Shown here piece by piece: positions 38,978-39,541 of a stretch of DNA of 64,000 nt (position 1 is the first letter of the stretch; the number at the start of each line of letters is the position of its first letter). Where the stretch lies: positions 34,260 to 98,259 of the forward strand of contig DATARR010000012.1 of assembly GCA_036264085.1 (NCBI GenBank), written 5' to 3'. Both the position numbers and the translations under genes were made by a program. The stretch is from Thermoanaerobaculia bacterium. GTDB lineage: Bacteria > Acidobacteriota > Thermoanaerobaculia > Multivoradales > UBA5704. The notes beneath the pieces are model-generated. The model ran no database searches. It was not told where the DNA came from and saw only the letters and a list, made by a program, of their open reading frames with translations.

Positions 38978-39541
38978 GGCTCGATGGGCGTGTCCGGCGT
39001 CTCATTGGACGTGTCCCATGGCTCGACGGGCATGTCCCGCGGCTCACGGGACGTGTCCCATGGCTCGACGGGCATGTCCCGCGTCTCATTGGACGTGTCC
39101 CATGGCTCGATGGACATGTCCCGCGTCTTCATTGGACGCGTCCCATGGCTCGATGGACATGTCCCGCGTCTCATTGGACGCGTCCCACGGCTCGATGGAC
39201 ACGTCTCGCGTGCCATTGGACGTGTCCTTTGGCTCAATGGACGTGTCCCGCGTCTCGTTGGACGTGTCCTTTGGCTCGATGGACAGGTCCCACGGCTCAT
39301 GGGACGTGTCCTGCGTCAGATCGGACCTGTCCTTTGGCTCATCGGACGTGTCCATCGGCTCAGGGGACATGTCCTGCGTCTCATGGTACGTGTCCTGCGC
39401 CTCGTTGGACAGGTCCAACGAGCCATTGGACATGTCCCGCGTCTCATGGGAAGTGTCCATTGACCGAGGGGACAGGCCCCGCGTCGCGTCGGACGCGTCC
39501 CGCCAGCGATGGGGCGCGTCCCGCGGCTCATGGTCCCCCGG
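38978..39541. repeat. 21-bp tandem repeat array, about 27 units, palindromic core GGAC(A/G)TGTCC
   Basis: Units alternate ggctcgatggacatgtcccgc / gtctcattggacgtgtcccat. One unit is 22 bp. The array has no stop codon in several frames, which creates the artefactual ORFs 38819..39463, 38898..39767, 38926..39300, 39086..39580 and others. Confidence 0.95.

Follow-up and report, generated by a model that had tools for sequence, protein, structure and literature searches.

A two-turn-phased palindromic array at an island edge, an orphan member of an extragenic array class restricted to one family of soil Thermoanaerobaculia

What is a long and strictly spaced row of palindromes doing between the genes of a soil acidobacterium? 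The question is raised by a 64,000-nucleotide stretch of contig DATARR010000012.1 (positions 34,260 to 98,259; assembly GCA_036264085.1, Thermoanaerobaculia bacterium), hereafter the window, in which a tandem array of 21-bp units lies between a low-GC island and the gene of a 62-aa peptide (P2). In this study we focus on this array and on its relatives in the source genome and in related species. The array does not code for protein, and it is an orphan copy within a class of extragenic arrays that is restricted to a single family of soil Thermoanaerobaculia (Acidobacteriota). As to its role, the reading that we favour, at about even confidence, is that of a phased docking row which a sequence-specific dimer would bind, placed where a variable island ends, with an architectural role as the likely one.

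At the window locus, Tandem Repeats Finder (TRF) reports a period of 21 bp with 22.9 copies over 38978-39458 (67% matches), a period of 42 bp with 11 copies over 38976-39438 (80% matches) and a short array tail at 39478-39525. The core map places 26 cores of the form GGAC-NN-GTCC between window positions 38986 and 39512 (contig C62 73245-73771), and the distance from one core to the next is 21 bp throughout, except for a single 22-bp step from 39112 to 39134. A sequence-only reading of this DNA had described about 27 head-to-tail units of 21 bp, one of them 22 bp long, phased at two helical turns; with 26-27 units, 26 mapped cores and this spacing, all three points are borne out. Moreover, just two 22-bp steps occur in the roughly 100 units of the four arrays of this GGACRYGTCC type that the genome contains. 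The same reading had given each unit a perfect palindrome or a one-mismatch variant of it, which goes too far: 4 of the cores are perfect copies of GGACATGTCC, but 9 of the 26 carry at least two mismatches to this ATG form, and the consensus is GGAC-RY-GTCC. When up to one mismatch is allowed, GGACATGTCC has 17 matches in the array and 1 elsewhere in the window; shuffled sequences give 2.4 matches per whole window, and the observed count was reached in 0 of 100 shuffles. The proposed alternation of two sub-types in a 42-bp super-unit is a real higher-order repeat, with a mean unit identity of 0.77 at lag 2 vs 0.65 at lag 1, and needs one correction, as the sub-types differ mainly in the spacer (..CAT-GGCTC-GAT.. 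vs ..CGC-GTCTC-ATT..). An assembly artefact (k = 21) was ruled out, because the units are diverged, the arrays are placed mid-contig, and like designs are found in independent assemblies, single-contig genomes included.

The position analysis of 147 units, taken from 6 arrays in 3 species, tells which parts of the unit are kept. The layout is GGAC-RY-GTCC, followed by N2-Y, then G-GCT-C or G-AGC-C, and finally R-N2. The eight outer positions of the core (GGAC..GTCC) depart from the majority base in 8% of units, and the two central positions, which are mostly R-Y and thereby keep an alternating purine-pyrimidine hexamer ACRYGT, in 39%, whereas spacer positions 11, 12, 20 and 21 deviate in 56% (heterogeneity between outer core, centre and spacer: chi-square 462, p = 2e-85). 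Variable positions are confined to 5-6, 11-12 and 20-21. The remainder of the unit holds a second element of 7 bp, Y13-G14-(AGC or GCT)-C18-R19, which is centred on base 16 and therefore lies 10.5 bp from the dyad of its own core and 10.5 bp from that of the next. This element is found in both orientations with a constant offset from the core (one clear flip in the window array, at 39407), as is expected for inversion of the 11-bp spacer between two palindromic cores. The array on contig C8 (L009 5700-6230) is a fold-back, in which 11 units with GGCTC are followed by 10 with GAGCC. Only the two position-fixed elements on one helix face and their spacing are kept in the unit, and the spacers are nearly randomised. 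The core, with its 4-bp arms and 2-nt centre, is too short for a useful hairpin alone, and the other 11 bp are not self-complementary; that it is conserved all the same points to recognition of the duplex. Conservation on the palindrome half-sites together with two-turn phasing fits an array of binding sites.

The window array is one of many built on this plan. In a TRF run on the whole assembly, period 21 is by far the commonest with 350 rows, next to 73 for period 42, 40 for period 63 and 73 for period 20. We defined the class as merged TRF arrays of at least 100 bp with a period of 20-22 or 40-43 bp, which gave 113 arrays, 96 of them intergenic. Those not classed as genic number 99 and amount to 26.5 kb (~0.4% of the genome) with a median length of 268 bp; their best autocorrelation period is 21 bp in 76 cases and 20 bp in 16. 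They fall into about 37 sequence families, each with a separate palindrome, such as TCGCCG-CTGT-CGGCGA (26 arrays) and ATACGACG-AGC-CGTCGTAT (10 arrays, TRF periods 41, 62 and 103, ~20.6 bp per unit); units that alternate between 20 and 21 bp, as these periods imply, exclude coding for such families. Further examples in the source genome lie at C150:48488-49063, C49:2674-3230, C32:26946-27347 and C145:4171-4563. Other species of the genus have multi-locus 21-bp arrays with cores of their own, for instance TCCTGGCCAGGA at no fewer than 7 loci in G017 and ACCTGGCCAGGT in G024. The reversed control pattern (CCTG-NN-CAGG every 21 bp) matched genomes of the same genus (G017, G024, G035 and G015; loci L029-L032). 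Where both flanking genes were called, 23 of 57 arrays stand between convergent genes, against 18% of background gene pairs, and divergent positions are depleted. A 3-kb flank below 62% GC is found for 19% of arrays vs 7% of random genome positions (odds ratio 3.1, p = 2e-4). The window array shares the features of the class: it is intergenic, has 20-22-bp units with a conserved dyad core and drifting spacers, occurs at several loci and is confined to the lineage. The sequence-only reading knew of no described element with this unit; our literature search likewise found no published description of the unit or of the design, the nearest described elements being repetitive extragenic palindromic sequences with bacterial interspersed mosaic elements (REP/BIME) and the BrickBuilt repeats. 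The class of about 100 phased-palindrome arrays is, apparently, so far undescribed.

The GGACRYGTCC unit itself forms three further arrays in the source genome (Table 1), and so occupies four loci. The suggestion that the array is an element dedicated to the island or to P2 fails on this point, since the unit is also arrayed on C7, C8 and C166 in other contexts. On C8, the array is followed by part of a hairpin like Acido-Lenti-1 and by a helix-turn-helix-fused HsdM/HsdS operon for type I restriction-modification. An exact two-unit pattern, searched against 185,579 species genomes, matched only two other records, JAJKHS01 (Thermoanaerobaculum sp. b48_HoplandSoil, here G019, the closest relative) and DATARD01 (Thermoanaerobaculia SMAG_U5484). 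In DATARD01 a peptidase gene stands on one side of the array and a ribbon-helix-helix/MazF pair, which has the array upstream of it, on the other. All-against-all comparison by blastn-short of the 200-bp flanks of 6 arrays revealed no shared flanks, the only matches being an Acido-Lenti-1 copy and one orthologous flank.

Comparison with G019, whose flanking DNA is 90-93% identical to that of the source genome at the nucleotide level, shows how the arrays behave over time. Two blocks align at the window locus, L050 8466-8523 with window 38900-38957 and L050 from 8556 onward with the window from 39537 onward; only ~30 unrelated-looking bases separate them, so that the G019 site is empty of the array. 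The peptide gene (DNA 89% identical) is retained at the empty site, together with a TAGAnT box and the ribosome-binding site. Just 2-3 units are found in G019 at the C8 locus vs 25 in the source genome; a frameshifted DUF1016/YhcG gene fills most of the space there. At the C7 locus the arrays are collinear on alignment, with 27 units in G019 (contig C142) vs ~20-22 in the source genome; identity is ~90% by the conserved flank and 65-70% distally, and the gaps, of 42 bp and ~21 bp, are whole units. An FAD/NAD-binding oxidoreductase gene, intact in G019 (L033 8208-9440), is reduced in the source genome to its N-terminal remnant (VTRNGWAKARVVIVETGVSG...) beside the C7 array (L010 5394-5560), a ~1.2-kb deletion that borders the array. 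Arrays change as entire units are gained or lost and as the 11-bp spacer between palindromic cores flips in place. On the alignments they are inherited, persist through speciation and can be wholly absent. Of the outcome that the sequence-only reading had named as speaking against itself, a strain-specific slippage product that lacks a conserved core in relatives, the first half holds, as the array is species-specific at the window locus, and the second does not, since the core is conserved in relatives at other loci.

A protein candidate emerged from the neighbourhood of the other arrays. Clustering of open reading frames (ORFs) near arrays yielded one family of ~125-150 aa, for which AlphaFold predicts (predicted local distance difference test score, pLDDT, 81) helices that span residues 3-23, 29-88 and, as a short one, 93-98, followed by a basic Pro/Thr-rich tail; a conserved G..(S/N)E.L..FG..P.R motif precedes the tail. 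Searches of Pfam, of PDB sequences and of the PDB by Foldseek returned no informative match. With 20 paralogues in the source genome, 22 in G019 and 29 in SMAG_U5484, this orphan family was not met outside the window's own taxonomic family in a sample of 401 genomes from across the phylum. The partner search covered the flanks of the 20 paralogues in the source genome and of 30 loci in G019 and G457. In the source genome, an array stands no more than 300 bp from 7 of 20 paralogues under the strict automatic rule (p = 1e-4; background 5.9% of genes) and from up to 11 of 20 by inspection, including one whose contig ends inside an array. Elsewhere, arrays with a period of 20-22 or 40-44 bp are found at a distance of up to ~400 bp for 18 of 29 and 14 of 30 loci in the other genomes. 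Periodic core matches at L110 and L111 were set aside as chance matches in coding or unrelated DNA. Related paralogues adjoin related unit types, a correspondence that could reflect specificity or joint duplication of gene and array. At one paralogue locus the array comes after an intrinsic terminator and hence is not part of that mRNA. The genes of the family in the source genome include C150:47868-48389, C102:31021-31428, C168:30268-30735, C41:3938-4315 and 16 more (loci L051-L111). Contig breaks fall within ~170 bp of the 3' end of two such genes (contig ends C42:22927-23092, where the break is inside the start of an array, and C185:21975-22011), and phased repeats appear to be one cause of assembly fragmentation in these metagenome-assembled genomes (MAGs).

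Taken together, the mechanism that we propose is the following. Each core would be the site of a dimeric, sequence-specific DNA-binding protein, and the 21-bp register would set ~26 dimers along one helix face, from where they could polymerise cooperatively into a filament. At the edge of a horizontally acquired island, such a filament may serve as a roadblock, a boundary or a compaction element rather than as the operator of the peptide gene. The likeliest class of binder would be the orphan family with its long helix and basic tail. Several observations weigh against this picture. The protein is modelled as a simple hairpin of helices in which no DNA-binding fold can be recognised, and a GGACRYGTCC array is absent at all of the ~70 paralogue loci inspected in three genomes, as is any paralogue from the window. 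The association between proteins and arrays could be indirect, since variable DNA of low GC content is favoured by both. The excess of arrays between convergent gene pairs is what REP elements show as selfish DNA that is tolerated, and conservation of the core may instead reflect the needs of an amplification process. Mismatches between orthologous arrays are rarer in the core (19%) than elsewhere (36%, p = 2e-5), but this difference is confounded, as misaligned units still share the core. Finally, the sister species has no array at the window locus and 2-3 units at the C8 locus, so any local function is dispensable. A wider form of the docking-row reading, speculative and rather unlikely in our judgement, is a sequence-directed chromatin or insulator system, in which 20-30 paralogues would each polymerise on an array type of their own, and the ~100 arrays, with their preference for convergent gene ends and the edges of acquired DNA, would be boundary, roadblock or compaction elements. 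The window array would then mark the boundary between a Druantia-like defence island and the host peptide gene, and its binder would be encoded elsewhere.

The strongest competitor of the docking row, somewhat unlikely yet serious, is a selfish or neutral extragenic satellite akin to REP/BIME-2 or to a minisatellite MITE (miniature inverted-repeat transposable element), spread by palindrome-driven slippage, unequal exchange or a Y1 transposase acting in trans, with the core kept for the amplification machinery. The dispersal of the class, its many species-specific families, the positional preferences given above (convergent gene pairs, low-GC accessory DNA) and the variation in presence and copy number between sister species would all suit it. 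Moreover, the genome has 11 Y1_Tnp genes, of the REP-associated tyrosine transposase (RAYT) or IS200 type, several of which are flanked by palindromes of their own, and tandem-reiterated REP clusters are documented (PMC3733652). However, GGACRYGTCC flanks none of these 11 genes in a search of their flanks for inverted 14-mers and for the core, which did find other REP types; the core is unable to form a REP-type hairpin, and neither a conserved leader or tail nor terminal inverted repeats mark the arrays. If recent slippage were the only process, spacers near saturation would not be expected in arrays that keep their register in ~98% of steps, and the vertical inheritance of arrays with conserved proximal units also counts against the satellite. 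It is improbable that the array is instead a cis-regulatory operator, through which the island sigma factor, a ribbon-helix-helix protein or a CadC-type regulator would control P2 or the divergent island promoter. The position before P2 that had been pointed out is confirmed, as the array ends 38 bp upstream of the ATG at 39579, and must cover any -35 region of P2; its last unit would supply the DNA where a -35 box would lie, ahead of a -10-like hexamer (Table 1) that a sigma-70 consensus scan did not report. The sole consensus promoter in this divergent intergenic region is that of the island operon, and in the third species with this unit type the array is upstream of the ribbon-helix-helix/MazF pair. 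Against an operator, G019 keeps P2, its ribosome-binding site and the -10-like box with no array and has the island swapped for other cargo, the sister arrays stand at 3' gene ends and beside unrelated genes, and 26 sites are far above the needs of an operator.

Still less probable, indeed very unlikely, is an element acting as RNA, be it a transcribed multi-hairpin molecule serving as a CsrB-type protein sponge or a guide-like array of the CRISPR or TIGR (tandem interspersed guide RNA) type. As a single strand the array folds far better than its shuffles (-164.6 vs -118.8 kcal/mol, z = -9.1), its units contain A(N)GGA-like strings, and guide arrays have the alternation of conserved with variable segments as their signature (bioRxiv 10.64898/2026.10.21.760802). 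The low folding energy is however a trivial outcome of many palindromes, the variable segments of 2-3 nt are too short as guides, and the second element flips strand within arrays. No promoter was found upstream of the array, the array beyond an intrinsic terminator at one paralogue locus lies outside the transcript, and there is no adjacent effector gene. As for translation, the sequence-only reading had noted several frames open across the array, which is correct, two plus-strand frames being free of stops, and had dismissed the long ORFs as probable artefacts. We agree, and consider it barely credible that the region encodes a heptad-repeat protein (for example D-[MVT]-S-x-x-x-x or T-C-P-x-x-x-x), perhaps as an in-frame fusion with the peptide gene. 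Such a protein could be imagined from a period divisible by 3 and from the one long ORF, 38898..39767, that continues through the array into the peptide gene. Yet the 22-bp unit shifts every reading frame and changes the repeat phase inside this ORF. The GC content at third codon positions (GC3) has a maximum of 0.79 over the array frames, which is not coding-like in a 69% GC genome, and for the open frames the values at second positions (GC2) go up to 0.79. Whichever phase is taken relative to the unit, at least one of the four sister arrays of this type has stops in it, and a Pfam scan of the array ORFs gave no family above cut-off. In addition, G019 has the same peptide gene with no array upstream, and related array families have 20.6-bp periods. 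The window array is non-coding DNA.

Coordinates of the array, of its irregular units, of the neighbouring features and of the sister arrays are collected in Table 1.

Table 1. Features at the window locus (window positions) and sister arrays of the GGACRYGTCC unit (contig and contig positions)
Feature	Coordinates	Strand	Basis or context
Tandem array, 26-27 units of 21 bp	38978..39541	.	Tandem Repeats Finder, core map, position matrix from 125-147 units
The one unit of 22 bp, with an additional T in ..GTCTTCATT..	39112..39133	.	Core spacing 73371 to 73393 on contig C62
Unit with second element flipped in place (GAGCC for GGCTC), offset from core unchanged	39407..39427	.	Orientation map; sequence AACGAGCCATT
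Degenerate right edge of array, cores GGAAGTGTCC, GGACAGGCCC, GGACGCGTCC, GGGCGCGTCC	39442..39541	.	Sequence, core map
-10-like hexamer TAGAGT (TAGACT in G019), between array and ribosome-binding site	39550..39555	+	Comparison with G019; inference
62-aa peptide gene, leader MKKRLQKKLELSRETLRSL...GG, Cys-rich core	39579..39767	+	ORF; no Pfam match; neighbour only
Acido-Lenti-1 (RF01687) hairpin, left arm of inverted pair	38751..38795	-	Rfam 38 bits, above gathering score
Acido-Lenti-1 hairpin, right arm	38890..38934	+	Rfam 28.5 bits; counterpart is the only copy at the G019 site
Low-GC (~52%) accessory island: DruA-like gene, two HATPase_c_3 genes, small sigma factor	32214..38499	-	Composition, Pfam
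Sister array, 25 units	C8 9709-10233		Between membrane-protein gene start and type I HsdM/HsdS operon
Sister array, ~20 units	C7 34581-35000		Between 3' ends of aldehyde dehydrogenase gene and ExbB-like gene
Sister array, 27 units, 105-bp higher-order repeat	C166 425-992		3' of secreted-protein gene

The array lies at the right edge of the 52%-GC island in a 69%-GC genome, and its neighbours on this chromosomal contig are the genes of the sigma factor, the GHKL ATPases, the DruA-like protein, the peptide and xanthine-dehydrogenase-type enzymes. Between the same conserved flanks (window 31292-38900 vs L050 5040-8466), G019 carries an fn3 protein, an HNH endonuclease and a Phd/YefM antitoxin. 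The locus is a variable hot spot, with a cassette of sigma factor, two GHKL ATPases and DruA-like gene in the source genome and other cargo in G019; a DUF1016/YhcG nuclease gene on its left is full-length in G019 and present only as a fragment in the window (30792-31370). The peptide on the other side of the array has a KKLELSRETLRSL...GG leader and a Cys-rich core, FSYPPTCPAQCGSDANTVCFATCACTSPAFCE, and by its sequence looks like a bacteriocin precursor or that of a ribosomally synthesised and post-translationally modified peptide (RiPP). DNA like its gene is found at several loci in other genomes of the genus.

On its left, the array starts ~40 bp past the inverted pair of Acido-Lenti-1 hairpins, which is a separate interspersed repeat that abuts the array. 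Rfam identifies Acido-Lenti-1 alone in the array region, beside the array, while microRNA matches inside the array are far below thresholds. The source genome has 71 copies of Acido-Lenti-1, many of them in inverted pairs with starts ~125-150 bp apart, and there the repeat behaves like a REP element or REP doublet (REPIN). It flanks or abuts 3 of the 11 Y1_Tnp (RAYT/IS200-type) genes (loci C182:24098-24738, C7:190207-191059 and C107:12035-12812), with one copy per side in inverted orientation at the C182 gene. A specific link between arrays and Acido-Lenti-1 was considered and rejected, as a copy is found at 400 bp or less from 4 of the 99 arrays vs 0.8 expected for random positions, no more than chance sharing of intergenic space would bring.

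The usual explanation of interspersed repeats in bacteria invokes hairpins and transposases that mobilise them. Here, what is conserved is a dyad in duplex DNA, a register of exactly two turns and, at one turn's distance, a second element, and such a pattern points to DNA that carries a protein lattice. One design with dozens of "addresses" takes up about 0.4% of the genome, and a lineage-specific orphan protein family travels along with it. If proteins do bind the arrays, they would represent a natural and expandable set of orthogonal protein-DNA address pairs and a new mode of bacterial chromosome organisation; if not, the arrays would be an unusually well-ordered bacterial satellite DNA, useful for studying how register is kept up during repeat turnover. 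ORFs called across such arrays in acidobacterial MAGs are best regarded as artefacts, and contig breaks are to be expected at the arrays.

How does this design compare with known systems? A survey of periodic intergenic arrays with a genomic language model lists periods of 5, 18 and 60-79 nt and does not mention 21 nt (bioRxiv 10.64898/2026.10.21.760802). The CRISPR, TIGR and VIPR arrays treated in the same work resemble ours in the periodic alternation of conserved and variable positions in intergenic DNA. They differ in that guide arrays have spacers of at least 9 nt and an effector nearby, whereas the variable stretches of the window array are without guide capacity, orientation flips occur inside arrays, and no Cas- or Tas-like gene is present among the island and flanking genes scanned against Pfam. 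In BrickBuilt of Porphyromonas gingivalis, which is a minisatellite MITE, the units are flanked by leader and tail subunits that are conserved and have inverted repeats at their ends (PMC4596501). BrickBuilt is alike in forming intergenic multi-copy arrays, with a unit of ~23 nt, no inter-unit spacers, a limited host range and a variable copy number. By contrast, our arrays share no flanks, decay gradually at their edges, are built of a dyad-core unit and belong to many unrelated families; a MITE of BrickBuilt type was rejected because leader, tail and terminal inverted repeats were absent in the comparison of the 200-bp flanks of 6 arrays.

The REP/BIME-2 elements of enterobacteria and pseudomonads (PMC3733652) come closer. 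These too are short palindromic units dispersed in extragenic DNA in species-specific families, often reiterated in tandem with alternating sub-types or orientations, and they prefer convergent or co-directional gene ends, as do the arrays described here, whose genome is also rich in Y1 (RAYT-type) transposases. Nevertheless, our arrays keep a strict head-to-tail 21-bp register over up to 27 units, require no GTAG or CGTC tag, and comprise ~37 families in one genome with the two-turn period common to all. The GGACRYGTCC unit is dispersed and extragenic in the manner of REP/BIME, and its class shares their bias to convergent gene ends, but it lacks the imperfect palindrome of 20-40 bp that forms their stem-loop, no REP hairpin arises from its core, and none of the genome's 11 Y1_Tnp genes is flanked by it.

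Other systems read short palindromes as duplex DNA. The matS site (GTGAC-RNY-GTCAC) bound by MatP, the Noc-binding sites and the SlmA-binding sites are each recognised by a small dimeric protein and structure or mark regions of the chromosome. They are single scattered sites of one type per genome, in contrast to the tandem arrays of dozens of types found here. Small dimeric proteins also bind the centromere and iteron arrays of plasmids, such as F sopC (12 x 43 bp, downstream of sopB), R1 parC with ParR and pSK41 parC (20-bp repeats), and the met-boxes of MetJ. The sequence-only reading had named iterons and centromere-like arrays as parallels. Taken literally, an iteron or plasmid centromere is not what we find: the arrays are chromosomal, spread over ~100 loci, unaccompanied by a partition NTPase and far richer in units than an operator, the window array has no adjacent partner gene, and by the searches run the candidate protein is not of the ribbon-helix-helix, helix-turn-helix or ParB-like type. 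The architecture is nonetheless shared. As in the plasmid systems, tandem units with a short dyad stand in helical register (in our unit with elements 10.5 bp apart), with a spacing that permits cooperative filaments on one face of the DNA, and many arrays of the lineage lie directly 3' or 5' of a small candidate partner gene.

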